Below are positions 8,781 to 15,137 of a stretch of 64,000 nucleotides of DNA, in pieces. The translations under genes and the position numbers were made by a program. The notes under the pieces are model-generated. The model worked only from the letters and a program-made list of their open reading frames with translations, was not told the origin of the DNA and did no database searches. The DNA is from Abditibacteriaceae bacterium (GTDB lineage Bacteria; Armatimonadota; Abditibacteriia; Abditibacteriales; Abditibacteriaceae), in the NCBI GenBank assembly GCA_031425655.1, contig JANPJS010000045.1:16305-80304 (forward strand), given 5' to 3'. Numbering within the stretch: position 1 is the first letter of the stretch; every line of letters starts with the position of its first letter.

Positions 8781-9917
8781 TTAGGTCGGAATGTTTAATG
8801 CGCGCAATTCGCGCCTAATTTTCTCTCCGGCGCTCTCAATGCCATTCGATATGTCTATGTATTCGACTCCACTTATATCTGACGGTATTTCAAGTGGCCC
8901 TTTATGAAGCAAAAGTATTCTGCCGCTTTCCCGCTTCAGCACACCGAGAAAGAATCCCATCTCAAAAATGACATTCTGACGTGCCCGGCGCTTTTCGTCG
9001 TTAGAGTCGTTGGGAGAGGTTGCATTATCGTCTGGCGTTAGCAAAACGAATACTACCTCTATGCCTTGAGCATGGTGTTCAAACTTCTCAATTATTGTTC
9101 GGCCAAGACCTGCCTGCTCGCGTAAAATCGTAGGTTCGCCGAGCTTTAAAGTGTTTTGAATGTAATTTTTTAAGTTGAGTAAAGCTACTTCATCGTGGCC
9201 GTGGACAATGAATACGTTGACTTCTCGATCTGAGGGTTGATTAGTTTGATTTACACTCGTCATGTCCGCTCCCAGCCTTCTTAACAGATTTTGGATTTGA
9301 ATGGCTCTCGCTTCGTGTTCTGGATTATACACCTGTGGCAGGGCGGTAAGCTCCAACTCCCTTTTTGCTTTAATGATAGCCTGCTTTCTTCGATTGAGAT
9401 CGTCCGCCATCGCGACGGCTAAATCTTTGTTGAAATCAACAAGTTTTTTAGTGAGTTCGTCTGCAAATTGTTCGATCAAGCCGGTTCGATAGTCCAGTTT
9501 CCGTTTTAAGGCGCCTTCTTCGTCATCTGGAGAGGCGCTAACTCTTATTTCGATACGATGACGTTCTTTATCTAAGAATGCCAAGGGAACGTTATGGATA
9601 TTTTGATCGCTTATTTCATCCAGCCATTCAGCATCGCGTTCAATCGGAATAAAGAAAGGGTGGTAGGTAATTCCGGTTTTACGAAAGAAGGTATGGTCTA
9701 CCGCCTCTAGGATTTCTTCATCCGCTTCCATCAAATCGAACCGAAGGATGGGCGGCGATACAGCATAATATCTGGTAAAGACAACCAATGTTCCGGTATC
9801 GCAGCGTAAAATATCCTCTTTAGAGAGTTCGTTGATGAACCTTAAGGCTTTTTCCCGACGCTCAATTAATTTTCTTTCCAGATAGCTGTAAGTGAAGGTA
9901 ACTTCTTCATTGTTCAT
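8781..9917 (-). CDS. TIR-like (Cap12/Pycsar-effector type) domain protein with an uncharacterised N-terminal domain
   Basis: C-terminal VFIVHGHDE..TIIEKFE..VLLTPDD..RARQNVIFEMGFF..EIPSDISG; lower GC than flanks. Confidence 0.85.
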   Translation of the reverse strand: MNNEEVTFTYSYLERKLIERREKALRFINELSKEDILRCDTGTLVVFTRYYAVSPPILRFDLMEADEEILEAVDHTFFRKTGITYHPFFIPIERDAEWLDEISDQNIHNVPLAFLDKERHRIEIRVSASPDDEEGALKRKLDYRTGLIEQFADELTKKLVDFNKDLAVAMADDLNRRKQAIIKAKRELELTALPQVYNPEHEARAIQIQNLLRRLGADMTSVNQTNQPSDREVNVFIVHGHDEVALLNLKNYIQNTLKLGEPTILREQAGLGRTIIEKFEHHAQGIEVVFVLLTPDDNATSPNDSNDEKRRARQNVIFEMGFFLGVLKRESGRILLLHKGPLEIPSDISGVEYIDISNGIESAGEKIRRELRALNIPT

Positions 9918-11067: not shown

Positions 11068-11221
11068 CACTTTCAATGGAACACGGGCCTACGGCATCCT
11101 GTCCAGAGGGCGCCCGAAACGACACAGATTCATCCGCCCAAAGGGCACCCGATTTTTTGGATTGATCTGCGGAAATCCCTGTGCATCCGCGAAATCCGTG
11201 TTCTATTGAAAGTGCTATTTC
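11061..11221. repeat. Palindromic intergenic element, TTTCAATGGAACACGG family, copy 2
   Basis: 26-bp inverted repeat gaaatagcactttcaat(g/a)gaacacgg that includes the TAG stops of both convergent genes. Confidence 0.85.
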
Positions 11222-11511
11222 GGCCACAGCGGATGCAAAATGAGAAACAGCGAAACAACGCTGACCATTGACCACAACGCGGCGATGAGCAGCGGCTTTT
11301 TCAAAATGCAGCGCGTGTCGTTTTTGCCCGCGCGATAAGCCAGAATGTAGAAAATTGCCGTCGCACCGGCGGCGACCGGCAAAGCGAAACGGCCCGTTAG
11401 CAAAATCAACGTCGCGGCCTTGCAAAAGGTGAACGCAATGCCTTCGTAAACTTCGCCCGGCGTTTTAGTGCGCGTTTTGATTTCGTCGGTTGGAATTGCT
11501 TCGTGCATCAT
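11215..11511 (-). CDS. Small membrane protein, last gene of the rSAM-Lgt operon
   Basis: 98 aa with hydrophobic segments; start abuts the upstream stop. Confidence 0.75.
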   Translation of the reverse strand: MMHEAIPTDEIKTRTKTPGEVYEGIAFTFCKAATLILLTGRFALPVAAGATAIFYILAYRAGKNDTRCILKKPLLIAALWSMVSVVSLFLILHPLWPK

Positions 11512-11838
11512 TTAGTCTCGTTTCGTCAGACGCATCAAAACGCGCCAACACGCAAAGGCGGCGGCTAAAAGAACGGCGCCGACCATGATTAAAATGGGCC
11601 GCAGTTCAGGGTATTCTCTGATGCCGTTAATGCCGGTTATCGTCGTGCAGGCGCCGAATGCGCCGAATCCCAAAGCGAGCAACGCCAGAACTACGATGCC
11701 CGCAAGCCGCGCCGCTTTGAACGGTTTCATCTCAATGCGAGCGCCGCACGCCGGGCAAAGCGGCACTAATTCAGGCAGGGCCATGCCGCAGTTGGGACAG
11801 GAATAAGGTTCAATCGGCGGAATCGGCGGCGCGCTCAT
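11512..11838 (-). CDS. Zinc-ribbon + 2 TM protein with lipobox-like FGAC
   Basis: CPNCG..CPACG, hydrophobic helix ending GFGAFGAC, second TM; paralog of 11843-12184. Confidence 0.85.
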   Translation of the reverse strand: MSAPPIPPIEPYSCPNCGMALPELVPLCPACGARIEMKPFKAARLAGIVVLALLALGFGAFGACTTITGINGIREYPELRPILIMVGAVLLAAAFACWRVLMRLTKRD

Positions 11839-11842
11839 GGTT

Positions 11843-12184
11843 TCACTTTCTCTTCAATTTAGCGATACCGATGGCGCACAGCACGGCGGTGGCGCATAAA
11901 GCAAGGCCAACGGCGCCAAAGACCAGCGCACCGACATAATTATTGATAGTGCCGTCGAAAAACGCACTAATGGGCGCTGTCACGAAGCAGGCTCCCAAAA
12001 GACCCGTCGGCACCATAAAAAGCGCGAGGACGCTCATCATTAAACAGTTCAACCATTGCGGTTTGCGCTGCGCGTTATCGGTGTGCGCGCCACACGCCGG
12101 GCAAAATTCGACGATTTCGGGCAGCGGCAGACCGCAATTCGGACAGCTATACGGTTCAAAAGAGGGAATTGGCGGCGCGTTCAT
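11843..12184 (-). CDS. Zinc-ribbon + 2 TM protein with lipobox-like LLGAC
   Basis: Start MNAPPIP overlaps the Lgt stop (ATGA); CPNCG..CPACG; TM ending GLLGAC. Confidence 0.85.
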   Translation of the reverse strand: MNAPPIPSFEPYSCPNCGLPLPEIVEFCPACGAHTDNAQRKPQWLNCLMMSVLALFMVPTGLLGACFVTAPISAFFDGTINNYVGALVFGAVGLALCATAVLCAIGIAKLKRK

Positions 12185-12888
12185 AATGATGCTCTGAGTT
12201 GTGACTTGCGGCTTTGGCGAGTCAAATAACCATGCCAAATCACGATAATGGCCGCAATTTCCAGGCAAATAAGCTGCGCAAGCGAAAGCGGGCCGATAAT
12301 CGCCGGGCTTTCGCGGAAAAACTCCAAGACGAAGCGACCAAATGTGAAAAGCAGCAGATAAAGTCGAAATAAATCGCCTTCGCGCCGCGTTTTTGCGCGC
12401 AAATTCCACAAAATAACGAAAATCGTCGCGGCAATCAGCGTGGCATAAAGCTGCGCCGGATGTCGCCACGCGCCGTGCTGAAAAATCGCCCACGGCAGAT
12501 GCGCCGCATCGCAGCGCGTGCCGAAACAGCAGCCATTGAAATAACAACCGATGCGTCCGATGGCTTCGCCTGTCGGTAAGGCCAGCGCCCACAAATCGCC
12601 CGTCGAACGCCGAATGCCCAGCCGCTTTTTAGCGATTTCCACAAACAGCCAGCCGCCGAGCAAACCTCCGATTAAAGCGCGTCCGCCGGGCGCGGTCAAT
12701 GATGCCGCGTCAGCGCCGGGCGTGGAAAGCCAAGCCGCGATGCGCGCTCCTAAAACTCCGCCGACCACGCCCCAGAACGCCACCAGTTTCATGCCTTCGG
12801 TGGATAAACGACGTTCGCGTGCTGCGATGAAAAAGACGGTTGCGCCCGCAACGTAAGCTAAAAAAGTGAAAAATTCGCCAAGTGTCAT
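12181..12888 (-). CDS. Prolipoprotein diacylglyceryl transferase (Lgt) family paralog
   Basis: GGVLGARI, GGLLGG, GD..ALAL..GEAIGRIGCYFNGCCFG, RHPAQLY, RFVLEFFR; short at 235 aa. Confidence 0.88.
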   Translation of the reverse strand: MTLGEFFTFLAYVAGATVFFIAARERRLSTEGMKLVAFWGVVGGVLGARIAAWLSTPGADAASLTAPGGRALIGGLLGGWLFVEIAKKRLGIRRSTGDLWALALPTGEAIGRIGCYFNGCCFGTRCDAAHLPWAIFQHGAWRHPAQLYATLIAATIFVILWNLRAKTRREGDLFRLYLLLFTFGRFVLEFFRESPAIIGPLSLAQLICLEIAAIIVIWHGYLTRQSRKSQLRASL

Positions 12889-12895
12889 AAAAATG

Positions 12896-13020
12896 AACCA
12901 CAGAGGGCACAGAGAACACAGAGAAATTTGAGAACAGTCAAGCTAAAGGCTTTTTCGTGTTGCTTCATTGCTCAGTTCTCAACTCTTGAAACCTCTGTGT
13001 TCACTGTGCCCTCTGTGGTT
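12896..13020. repeat. 9-mer-repeat hairpin element (CACAGAG units) inside the rSAM-Lgt operon
   Basis: aaccacagagggcacagagaacacagag and its inverse, 27/28 match. Confidence 0.85.
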
Positions 13021-13022
13021 TA

Positions 13023-14582
13023 TTAAACAGCCTCCAGCGGAATTATGCCTTCCACGAGGCGATGTTCGGGAAAGTCTTCGGCGTCGTCGAACAAATAGCG
13101 CCAGCAAAACGAATAACGGCGCGGGTCTTTTTCAAAAGTGCCGGTGTGAACGCAGCATTGCCGCAGGCGGGCCGAGTGCAGCGTGTGCGCGTCCATGAAC
13201 ATTTTGACCGTGATGCGAAACGTCTTCTCGGCGGTTTTTTCCAGCATCGAATCGCTCCAATCGCGCGCCGGACGCCATAATTCCAGCAATTCCGGCAGGC
13301 CCGCGACACAGCCGCACAAACGCGATAAATCGCGCGCCAGTTGCGGCGCGCCAAGCGGCAGTTGCTCTGAGAAAACGCGCGCAAGGGCGCCCGAACGCAG
13401 CATTTCTTTGAGCGAATCGGAGGCGCTTTCAAAAGAAATCGTGTTGGCGAAAAGGTGCAGCCACGATTTCAATTCGTCGCGCCCGATAAGCTGTGGCAAC
13501 GATTTCCAGCCGTTGCGGGTTTGCAAAAGATAGGTAATATCGCAGCAATCGCGGTGCGAGCAGGGCAAAGGTATGAAATCGTCGCCGCGCAATAAACCGT
13601 CGCTTTGAGCTTCCAATCGCCGCAAAACGCCGGTCGGCGTGAGGCGGTTTTGTGGGTCGTAAGCCACGGCGCGGCCCGAACCGAACATCGGCTGAATCGC
13701 CAAGCCGGAACAATGCGGCGTGTCCAAACCGAGTTGCACGACGGCGCCCAATTCGTCGTCGTTGACGCCCTGTGCGGCTGTCATTACTAACGTCGTCCAC
13801 ACGCCGGCTTTGCTTAATCGCTGCAAAGCGCGCAATTTTTCTGCGGCCACGTCGTCGCCGCGCAAAGTGAGATAAGTTTGTGGTCGCAAGCCATCGAATT
13901 GCAGGTAAATCTCGATTTTCCTGCGATGTTTTTGCAAGAATTGCAGGAATTTATCGTCGCGCGCGATGCGGCGCCCGTTGGTGTTGATGAGAATGCGCGT
14001 GATCGGCAAATCGCTCAGCGATTCGATGACTTGCGGCAAATCTTCGCGCACGGTTGGCTCGCCGCCCGACAGCATCAGCACGCCCAATTTGCCGTTTTCG
14101 CGCGCCAACATGGTTTCGACGGTGCGGCGGATTTCGTCAATCGAAGGATGCTCCGGCTGCGGCGAGGGCGTGCCGGGCGCAAGCGCCGAAGCGTAGCACG
14201 CCGGGCACGAATAATTGCAGCGAGCCGTGACGTTGAGCAGCAAAATGCAGGTGTGTTGGCCGTGCGAGGCCGGCAAACCGTCGCGGTAGGCGTCGGGAAA
14301 GGCGCCGAAATTATCGGCGCGATCCGGCGTGACACGAAGCGTCGGCGCACTCCAACCTTGCCGGGCGCGCCACAATTCGGCGTCTTCTTCGTAAAGCGAT
14401 TCGCTTTCGCCGTGCGAAGCACAAAAGCGGCGCATCCAGACTTTGCCTTCTCGGCTCACCAGCATTCCGTCTTTCCAAATATCGGCTTCATCCGAGCGCC
14501 GTGCGCGTTCGGCGAAGCATTGCGGGCAAACCGTGGTTGTGTATTCTTCGATGAGATAATCGCGCGGCGGCATTCCAATCAT
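13023..14582 (-). CDS. Radical SAM protein of the Tes/GDGT-MAS (MJ0619-like) family
   Basis: N-terminal TVCPQC..RFCASHG; CNYSCPAC; SGGEPT; NTNG; YLQFDG; IPLPCSHRDCC; C-terminal FMDAH..RLRQCCVH..SFC. Confidence 0.85.
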   Translation of the reverse strand: MIGMPPRDYLIEEYTTTVCPQCFAERARRSDEADIWKDGMLVSREGKVWMRRFCASHGESESLYEEDAELWRARQGWSAPTLRVTPDRADNFGAFPDAYRDGLPASHGQHTCILLLNVTARCNYSCPACYASALAPGTPSPQPEHPSIDEIRRTVETMLARENGKLGVLMLSGGEPTVREDLPQVIESLSDLPITRILINTNGRRIARDDKFLQFLQKHRRKIEIYLQFDGLRPQTYLTLRGDDVAAEKLRALQRLSKAGVWTTLVMTAAQGVNDDELGAVVQLGLDTPHCSGLAIQPMFGSGRAVAYDPQNRLTPTGVLRRLEAQSDGLLRGDDFIPLPCSHRDCCDITYLLQTRNGWKSLPQLIGRDELKSWLHLFANTISFESASDSLKEMLRSGALARVFSEQLPLGAPQLARDLSRLCGCVAGLPELLELWRPARDWSDSMLEKTAEKTFRITVKMFMDAHTLHSARLRQCCVHTGTFEKDPRRYSFCWRYLFDDAEDFPEHRLVEGIIPLEAV

Positions 14583-14597: not shown

Positions 14598-15137
14598 GTG
14601 AAACGAACGTGGATGCTGTTTATCATCGCGGCGATAATTGGAAGCGGCGTGTTCTGGCTGCGCCGCGCGCCGAATCCATCGTGGCCTGTGCCTGCGCCGC
14701 TTCCGCTGCGTTTAACTCTGCCTTACGGCATGGCGCCGCCGGCTTTTAAGGCGTTCGTGCGCGCTTGTCATCGCGCGAAAATTCATCCGTGGCGCATCGG
14801 GCAAACCATCGGCGAGCATCCACTGTCGGTGGGCTACCATCGTCAAGACGGCGTGTGGCGGCTGAATAAAATGCCGTTCGATTATTGCGCCGCCGTGGAT
14901 TTAGGCACCAGCGACCTCAACGAAACGCAGATTAAGGTATTTCTCGAAGAGTTGGCGAAGCAGGGATTTGCGTCCTTTTATCGTCACGGAGGCAAATGGA
15001 AAGGCCGCGAGCATATTCACGCGATTTACGCGCTACTGCCGATGAAAATTCAACTGCGCCGCCAAGTGCGCGAATTTTTGCGCGAGCGCCGCGCCGCGAA
15101 GAAGCCGAATTTGAAGTGGGCGAAACGCTGGCGCTAA
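14598..15137 (+). CDS. Membrane-anchored putative M15/LAS-type metallopeptidase
   Basis: N-terminal TM; SVGYH..AAVDL..EHIHA zinc-ligand-like pattern; the real gene is the 3' part of ORF 13878-15137. Confidence 0.6.
   Translation: MKRTWMLFIIAAIIGSGVFWLRRAPNPSWPVPAPLPLRLTLPYGMAPPAFKAFVRACHRAKIHPWRIGQTIGEHPLSVGYHRQDGVWRLNKMPFDYCAAVDLGTSDLNETQIKVFLEELAKQGFASFYRHGGKWKGREHIHAIYALLPMKIQLRRQVREFLRERRAAKKPNLKWAKRWR

Follow-up and report, generated by a model that had tools for sequence, protein, structure and literature searches.

The archaeal radical S-adenosylmethionine (rSAM) enzyme GDGT-MAS, or tetraether synthase (Tes), which joins lipid tails to one another, threads lipid tails into internal pockets while the head groups, which vary among its crystals, face outward. 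As the accessible sections of its description report, E. coli phospholipids bind to it, and its reaction has a lipid C-S intermediate with a terminal C-S bond (PMC9433317). Bacterial Tes homologs are used to point at the sources of lipid biomarkers. Zeng et al. describe 456 of them, for which the available text proposes a role in branched tetraethers that is untested there (PMC8941075), and Sahonero-Canavesi et al., in the accessible part of their paper, report no Tes homologs in their diabolic-acid producers and homologs in 3 of 14 acidobacterial producers (PMC13159169). The lipoprotein enzyme Lgt, phosphatidylglycerol:prolipoprotein diacylglyceryl transferase, has been dissected in E. coli, where available excerpts give His103 and Tyr26 as essential (10.1101/2025.03.27.645668). 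A second Lgt of M. smegmatis, MSMEG_5408, carries Y26H and N146C and has an unclear role in the accessible portion of its description (10.1101/2025.01.07.631728). Here we describe a locus that joins both enzyme families. It lies in a 64,000-nucleotide (nt) stretch, the window, from an Abditibacteriaceae bacterium (GCA_031425655.1, contig JANPJS010000045.1, positions 16,305-80,304 of the forward strand). A core of three parts, namely a Tes-like rSAM, an Lgt paralog (Lgt') and small membrane proteins in which one helix closes with G-x-C, has been conserved among phyla and comes on top of ordinary lipoprotein synthesis.

Five open reading frames (ORFs) on the minus strand, adjacent and in the same orientation, encode the rSAM, Lgt' and three small membrane proteins (A, B and C). 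Coordinates are positions within the stretch and Lgt residues follow E. coli numbering.

13023..14582, minus strand: Tes/GDGT-MAS-like radical SAM enzyme, 519 amino acids (aa); Pfam PF04055 and PF23545
12889..13022, minus strand: spacer between the rSAM gene and lgt', 134 nt, with a long hairpin
12181..12888, minus strand: Lgt paralog Lgt', 235 aa; PF01790, 119.7 bits
11843..12184, minus strand: protein A, candidate acceptor, 113 aa; Cys66 codon at 11987-11989
11512..11838, minus strand: protein B, candidate acceptor, 108 aa; Cys64 codon at 11647-11649
11215..11511, minus strand: protein C, accessory, 98 aa; C30 codon at 11422-11424 and C68 codon at 11308-11310

The start ATG of A overlaps the lgt' stop by four bases, and B abuts C. 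An earlier note on this DNA had described five co-oriented genes, the last four abutting or overlapping; the five ORFs are confirmed, A and B lie 4 nt apart, and all the motifs that it quoted are present in the translations.

The rSAM was matched in 29 of 61 related genomes. Its named close homologs belong to the Armatimonadota, including Abditibacteriaceae, and that of Fimbriimonas ginsengisoli is 66% identical to the window enzyme. In the host family, 19 of the 20 rSAM-bearing genomes (one has only a fragment) and none of the 7 that lack the rSAM contain an Lgt of paralog-type score, a contrast among kin that are not independent of one another; a housekeeping-type Lgt is present in 26 of the 27. 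The best 80 of 599 matches in the genome collection come from Armatimonadota, Actinomycetota, Chloroflexota, Vulcanimicrobiota, Gemmatimonadota and Bacillota. Lgt' is present at 100 of the 115 loci L001-L115, which include the window, four duplicates and many short flanks, and it is always co-oriented with the rSAM. Where at least 900 nt are available on both sides, it adjoins the rSAM in the same orientation at 68 of 69 genome-collection loci. A second search, with rSAM homologs that retain an N-terminal auxiliary cluster (N-cluster) lost from the window enzyme, gave 80 metagenome loci, the best 80 of 588. An Lgt occurs at 44 of these, co-oriented at 42, and at 28 of the 40 with long flanks (one on the opposite strand). 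Because the linkage of rSAM and Lgt' recurs across phyla, it is far beyond chance, and the Lgt linkage singled out by the earlier note is found in at least six phyla.

A quick IQ-TREE search over 65 rows, with no true Tes included, groups the window's type of rSAM, in which the N-cluster is lost, as a single clade of 25 rows (SH-aLRT 99). Next to it stand two further Lgt-linked clades, both with the N-cluster retained. Nine of the 12 long-flank metagenome loci lacking an Lgt belong to a distinct subgroup, with a methyltransferase after the rSAM in the six loci listed. In the tree, the rows linked to a methyltransferase are separate from the Lgt-linked clades, but basal support is weak. A Tes-like rSAM followed by a methyltransferase, with no Lgt nearby, is seen at L033, L130, L137, L141, L160, L173, L193 and L198. 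This methyltransferase-linked group is bacterial and haloarchaeal, and in the one member tested the methyltransferase is DVU_1556-like, at 125 bits against a cut-off of 155. In the nearly closed genome G016 (contigs C3 and C8; locus L204), one contig carries the rSAM and another lgt', the A/B-type genes and C, which shows that a cassette can be divided.

By sequence, the closest solved relative of the window rSAM is GDGT-MAS (PDB 7tol, E 7e-43 over residues 3-494; next match 2e-06). The predicted model, with a predicted local distance difference test score (pLDDT) of 90, shows the overall four-domain fold of GDGT-MAS/Tes and is closest to 7tom (template modelling (TM) score 0.72/0.75, E 5.5e-36; next match E 1e-10). 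Maturases of RiPPs, peptides made by the ribosome and modified after translation, match it only over the core barrel, with a TM score of about 0.34, and no SPASM/twitch domain or RiPP recognition element is among its Pfam matches. The Tes/GDGT-MAS layout that the earlier note recognized is thus borne out by closest sequence and fold, but the enzyme is not a member of Tes and has another cofactor set. It scores 193.5 bits against the Tes family NF045702 (cut-off 450; eight homologs score 146-324), and its best NCBIfam score is 238 bits against TrsS, NF045646 (cut-off 490).

The window rSAM carries CPQC at 19-22, CASH at 54-57, CNYSCPAC at 122-129, FMD at 462-464, RQCCVH, and SFC at 491-493. Conservation was read from 77 rows, the window plus the 76 of 115 loci that passed a length and motif filter, with ligand positions taken from the accessible text of Lloyd et al. 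(PMC9433317) and an alignment to 7tol (20-residue tag offset). The rubredoxin CxxC...CxxH (C19, C22, C54 and H57) and the SAM-cluster CxxxCxxC (C122, C126 and C129) are present in all 77 rows. In contrast, the N-cluster cysteines (C73, C77 and C80 of GDGT-MAS) are replaced in the window enzyme, and the complete motif, His included, is found in 5 rows and absent from 72. C476, C477 and C493 align with the C-terminal cysteines of GDGT-MAS. The Met439 position is Lys in 71 rows and the Tyr459 position V/T/S/I in 73, and both residues are dispensable for GDGT-MAS activity in the available account (PMC9433317). Additional cysteines are conserved as well: C112 and C341 in 77 rows, C346 in 73, C347 in 65, C423 in 72 and C425 in 73. 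Residues 370-450 are helical, at lower model confidence; in GDGT-MAS, amphipathic helices build the second lipid pocket, as the accessible sections describe (PMC9433317). The enzyme lacks a signal or membrane segment, which, together with its need for Fe-S clusters, points to a cytoplasmic location.

The genome, which is 97% complete, has two Lgt genes. One lies on contig C64 directly after signal peptidase II-like and aminoacyl-tRNA synthetase-like genes, which we take to be lspA and ileS. Its product passes the TIGR00544 cut-off (123.3 bits vs 118.9), whereas Lgt' falls below it at 79.1. The separate housekeeping lgt on which the earlier note depended is therefore present, beside an lspA-like gene, and Lgt' is a dedicated paralog. 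The motifs GRIGCYFNGCC and RHPAQLY are indeed in Lgt', but the GCC and HP motifs are not paralog-specific, as the housekeeping Lgt carries both.

Lgt' sequences were compared in 94 rows (the window plus loci, without duplicates and fragments below 200 aa) and in a second set of 37 rows that accompany the other rSAM type, with a 13-residue Lgt motif from the accessible part of a recent study as reference (10.1101/2025.03.27.645668). Among the 94, R143, G154, R239 and E243 are invariant and R246 is kept in 92. The N146 position is Cys in all 94, and it is also Cys in the genome's housekeeping Lgt. Position 103 is Leu in 66 rows, Ile in 12, the window among them, Val in 9, Met in 3, Glu in 3 and Phe in 1; His is absent from all 94 and from all 37 of the second set. 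The Tyr26 position is Gly in the window Lgt', which has a short N terminus in the alignment to 5azb, mostly His in other phyla, and His in 32 of the 37. With His103 absent, and in this lineage Tyr26 too, the ordinary diacylglyceryl transferase activity that the earlier note ascribed to Lgt' cannot be assumed.

Proteins A and B are paralogs (47% identical over 77 aa, E 4e-20), each with two hydrophobic segments and a Pfam zinc ribbon at or near the cut-off. In A the ribbon is followed by a helix ending in LLGAC (Cys66), a second helix and a basic tail, and in B the equivalent helix ends in FGAC (Cys64). Judged by their sequences, they are members of a loosely bounded class whose hallmark is a membrane helix with G-x-C at its end, which we captured as 18 hydrophobic residues, G/A/S at -2 and Cys in mechanical six-frame ORF calls. 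This rule was drawn from the first locus set and loosened after the second had been seen, so that the following ratios are indicative: at the cassette, 81 of 135 co-oriented membrane ORFs carry the motif vs 4 of 161 farther off (L031-L115), and 34 of 80 vs 2 of 43 in the second set (L116-L195), against a genome background of 98 in 2630. At least one such ORF is present at 60 of 70 and 19 of 26 well-flanked loci. Through this enrichment the acceptor Cys proposed in the earlier note is conserved in homologous loci across phyla.

Across 124 motifs, Gly occupies -2 in 108, and -1 is taken by L/V/I/F in 72 and by A/G in 30. A median of 21 residues separates the Cys from the first K/R upstream of it (quartiles 20-21, n=124). 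By the positive-inside rule this K/R would be cytoplasmic and the Cys one span away, on the side where Lgt works. In 74 of the 124 the motif is no more than 15 residues from the C terminus. The segment before the helix varies, being a zinc ribbon in Armatimonadota, and proline-rich tails or extra helices in Actinomycetota. The only clear cargo cases are in Chloroflexota, where a soluble domain of ~150 residues follows the Cys:

L087:3667-4533: Chloroflexota G-x-C protein with soluble domain
L088:3995-4897: Chloroflexota G-x-C protein with soluble domain
L093:1165-2028: Chloroflexota G-x-C protein with soluble domain
L104:3130-4029: Chloroflexota G-x-C protein with soluble domain

The earlier description of zinc-ribbon membrane proteins accordingly fits A and B, but ribbons belong mainly to the Armatimonadota versions. 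Up to seven highly divergent G-x-C paralogs stand in tandem at a locus, hypervariable apart from the Cys. When a profile of 50 A/B-type sequences was run against the genome, only A and B carried the motif among the matches listed. In many Abditibacteriaceae-type A/B copies, helix 2 has a second Cys close to its cytoplasmic end, commonly ahead of WG; by uncounted inspection of the alignment it was not seen in A/B-type copies of other phyla.

A lipobox follows the consensus [LVI][ASTVI][GAS]C, with a small -1 residue, at the end of an N-terminal signal peptide and before a polar mature region. The earlier note had called the A and B motifs lipoboxes, and by the letter they fit; in the family motif, however, the residue at -1 of G-x-C is bulky in most cases and the sequence continues hydrophobic, and in A and B the Cys stands at residue 64-66, behind a zinc ribbon. 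The small proteins are membrane-embedded and have no evident RiPP leader. On these features, the tandem, variable G-x-C proteins behave like substrates and look unlike cleavable lipoproteins. A canonical-looking lipoprotein does lie inside one cassette, between a zinc-ribbon protein and the rSAM (L209:4044-4604, minus strand, genome G091), with a signal peptide ending in SGC and a polar mature part.

Protein C is predicted to form three helices (18-39, 44-60 and 73-92; model pLDDT 90) and has no Pfam or NCBIfam family. C30 is present in 66 of 67 rows and C68 in 65, the remaining rows being gaps. A fold search returned only generic three-helix bundles (best Z 11.3, MIT-type), which mean little for helical bundles, and an ESM Atlas search only unnamed clusters. 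Of 151 phylum genomes, 28 have C, always as a single copy. Where the rSAM is of the window's type, C occurs at 57 of 69 loci, and it occurs at none of the 80 loci of the N-cluster-retaining search. Some mycobacteria lack it, and whole-genome searches did not find it in five of five actinobacterial genomes with the window's rSAM type, whose completeness is unstated. C is best read as an optional membrane partner, or accessory, of one rSAM clade. The idea that it is an obligatory part supplying the lost N-cluster ligands agrees with the contrast of 57 of 69 and 0 of 80 but was rejected, given the 12 of 69 loci and the five actinobacterial genomes without it. A fusion of C and rSAM was also discarded: 15 of 25 longer proteins carry both, nearly all with truncated starts and the garbled linkers typical of frameshifted assemblies, and only P0126 and P0132, both N-truncated, single-cluster records, read cleanly through rSAM and C.

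Tentatively, and with slightly less than even confidence, we read the cassette as a dedicated two-enzyme lipidation pathway with its own acceptors, in which the rSAM alters phospholipid tails before Lgt' transfers the lipid to the Cys of uncleaved G-x-C proteins. Phospholipid would be the substrate because it is the only currency common to GDGT-MAS-fold and Lgt-fold enzymes, and the Cys would be the acceptor because it is the only conserved side chain of these variable proteins and lies one span from the cytoplasm. The rSAM would draw a phospholipid tail into a tunnel of the GDGT-MAS type and generate a tail radical. The outcome could be a tail-to-tail C-C bond, giving a macrocyclic or membrane-spanning lipid, or another change such as sulfur addition. 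Since GDGT-MAS threads tails inside and binds bacterial phospholipids, a cytoplasmic rSAM would most simply act on the free lipid first. Lgt' would then grip the phosphoglycerol head group with its retained arginines and pass the modified glyceryl lipid to the G-x-C Cys at the outer-leaflet end of the acceptor helix; such a modified donor would explain the retention of a separate Lgt with a remodelled 26/100/103 site. The acceptors, uncut by LspA, would remain integral membrane proteins bearing an unusual thioether-linked lipid, with C as the optional partner. Most bacteria known to produce membrane-spanning lipids have no detected Tes homolog, which is in keeping with a specialised product and not a bulk one. 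In a narrower form of this proposal, which we consider rather doubtful, the Tes-like enzyme would weld two phospholipid tails and Lgt' would hang the resulting membrane-spanning lipid on the Cys of the small integral membrane proteins, stapling protein covalently to both leaflets; such a linkage would be a post-translational modification of a new kind.

Several observations weigh against a lipidation pathway of this kind. The rSAM and GDGT-MAS share only 23% identity when aligned by structure, and the rSAM scores higher against TrsS than against Tes (238 vs 193). The auxiliary-cluster ligands differ between the Lgt-linked rSAM clades, and the C476 and C493 positions are not Cys in the 36 rows of the other rSAM type; that type may have lost or rebuilt the C-terminal cluster, on which GDGT-MAS carries its intermediate. 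In Lgt', 93 of 94 rows lack any of H/Y/W/F at position 103, and the window copy, with neither His103 nor Tyr26, may be no thiol-activating transferase. On the acceptor side, no ORF satisfies the motif rule at 10 of 70 and 7 of 26 loci with good flanks, and the Cys is missing from some paralogs of the A/B type. Residues +1 to +6 after the Cys are hydrophobic (median +1.65 vs -0.97 in 33 canonical-like lipoproteins picked from the genome by pattern), so that the G-x-C Cys may be less exposed than that of a lipobox.

The earlier note had placed the two steps in the opposite order, with Lgt' adding plain diacylglycerol to the G-x-C Cys and the rSAM then crosslinking the bound tail to a lipid or to a second lipidated protein. 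The same gene linkage and Cys conservation speak for that order, as do the outward-facing and varied head groups that GDGT-MAS tolerates in its crystals, in the accessible text (PMC9433317). It is nevertheless topologically awkward, as a Fe-S enzyme that appears to be cytoplasmic would have to reach a Cys predicted on the outer face, one helix from the cytoplasmic K/R. Threading tails into internal pockets is hard for a lipid tethered on the far face, and the need for a separate, altered Lgt is explained less simply than by a modified donor, so that we regard this order as unlikely. The lipidation could instead be the work of the rSAM itself, its tail radical being captured directly on the Cys of A and B (or of C) to give a thioether to the lipid tail, with Lgt' as a non-catalytic presenter of lipid or substrate. 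The terminal C-S intermediate of GDGT-MAS offers a precedent within the available description (PMC9433317), and the lack of His103 throughout the 94 and 37 rows, the hydrophobic residues after the Cys and the several extra conserved cysteines of the window's rSAM clade are all in keeping with it. We give direct radical S-alkylation little weight, however, because the invariant R143, R239 and E243 of Lgt' suggest a working head-group site and some 21 residues separate the Cys from the cytoplasmic boundary, which places it away from the enzyme.

Two further explanations remove the link between the rSAM and the protein Cys. The rSAM and Lgt', the latter as a lipid-to-lipid transferase, might together make a free unusual lipid, with the small proteins as scaffolds or regulators. 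Their Cys would then serve in a disulfide, metal binding or packing, in line with G-x-C being no canonical lipobox, and the invariant cysteines of single-copy C are as expected for a subunit. Bacterial Tes homologs have also been proposed to make membrane-spanning lipids in the accessible text of one study (PMC8941075), but according to the available part of another they do not track the known bacterial producers of such lipids (PMC13159169). Moreover, the G-x-C proteins are multi-copy and hypervariable except for the Cys, as substrates are. To our knowledge, every characterised Lgt acceptor is a protein cysteine, and a lipid-only product seems improbable. The rSAM might alternatively act on a cofactor, metalloid or peptide, as the TrsS-like, methyltransferase-linked relatives may, while Lgt' lipidates its private proteins. 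TrsS outscores Tes in all eight homologs scored as well as in the window rSAM, and in a sister group the linked gene encodes a DVU_1556-like methyltransferase and not an Lgt. TrsS is itself far below its cut-off (238 vs 490), though, and no described substrate for it was found in the accessible literature; a lipid substrate is indicated by how nearly always the rSAM is paired with a lipid transferase, and the only full-length fold match is a lipid enzyme. We therefore consider a non-lipid substrate very unlikely. The preferred reading thus remains modification of a free phospholipid by the rSAM followed by transfer through Lgt'.

The 134-nt spacer folds as one hairpin (-64.8 kcal/mol, z -8.1; 0 of 200 shuffles equally stable). 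Similar arms are found on contigs C16, C70, C186 and C300 of the genome, and the gap between the rSAM gene and lgt' ranges from 0 to 274 nt among close relatives. The hairpin is probably a small dispersed palindromic repeat rather than a conserved part of the system, and it could stabilise the rSAM portion of the transcript. A scan of the locus for promoters and terminators gave no more signals than shuffles. The GC content at third codon positions of the five cassette genes (0.59-0.68) is unremarkable next to a low-GC neighbour. This nearby gene (8781-9917, minus strand) encodes a 378-aa protein with a C-terminal TIR domain of the CAP12/Pycsar type (PF10137, 107.7 bits); its GC content is low, 0.44 vs 0.57 for the genome, and it looks like a recently acquired stand-alone defence effector. 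Divergently transcribed at 14598-15137 (plus strand) is a gene for a 179-aa protein that matches nothing in Pfam or NCBIfam and has a membrane anchor at its N terminus. A homolog stands at the equivalent place in genome G002 and a paralog on contig C278; the protein was not seen beside the rSAM at more distant loci.

The earlier note knew of no characterised system of this make-up, and we found no description of an rSAM-Lgt cassette in the open-access literature, subscription papers being mostly outside that coverage. In outline, that note named the parts and the logic correctly; the points to amend are Tes membership, the lipobox and the sequence of steps. The system is real, widespread and apparently undescribed. 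Its novelty lies in the make-up, as no described pathway joining both enzyme families was found; both enzymes come from known superfamilies, and the chemistry is proposed. Tying a broad group of bacterial Tes homologs to an Lgt paralog and Cys-tagged membrane proteins gives work on their function a concrete enzyme, partner and candidate substrate, and the cassette suggests what second copies of Lgt, presumed to be of low activity, might do. If lipid stapling were true, it would provide a function for a large share of the unexplained bacterial Tes homologs and of 'second' Lgt genes, for example the mycobacterial one.

Compared with GDGT-MAS/Tes (M. jannaschii MJ0619; 7TOL, 7TOM; NF045702), the window rSAM is alike in whole-length fold and in its rubredoxin and SAM sites, and the C-terminal CC...C pattern is common to its clade. 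It differs in score, in the lost N-cluster cysteines, in the changed Met439 and Tyr459 positions and in its extra cysteines, and it comes from a bacterial host, in an operon with Lgt' and candidate acceptors. With TrsS (NF045646), which appears as a table entry in the accessible part of one paper (PMC13188914), it shares the rubredoxin and SAM layout and its best NCBIfam score, but that score is below the cut-off and the neighbours are different. Lgt' shares the domain and R143, G154, R239, E243 and R246 with E. coli Lgt (5AZB; PF01790; TIGR00544). Unlike that enzyme, it is below the equivalog cut-off, lacks His103, has Cys at position 146 and is a second copy besides the housekeeping gene, and its candidate acceptors have no cleavable signal peptide. 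The change of N146 to Cys is shared with MSMEG_5408, whereas His at position 26, which MSMEG_5408 has in common with most Lgt' copies of other phyla, is Gly in the window Lgt'. The archaeosortase PGF-CTERM, rhombosortase GlyGly-CTERM and MYXO-CTERM systems likewise have a dedicated membrane enzyme encoded near variable proteins with a short common motif beside a membrane helix, and lipid attachment occurs in some C-terminal sorting-tag systems. In the cassette described here, however, the enzyme is an Lgt paralog and neither a protease nor a transpeptidase, a radical SAM enzyme invariably accompanies it, and most of the tagged proteins are tiny.

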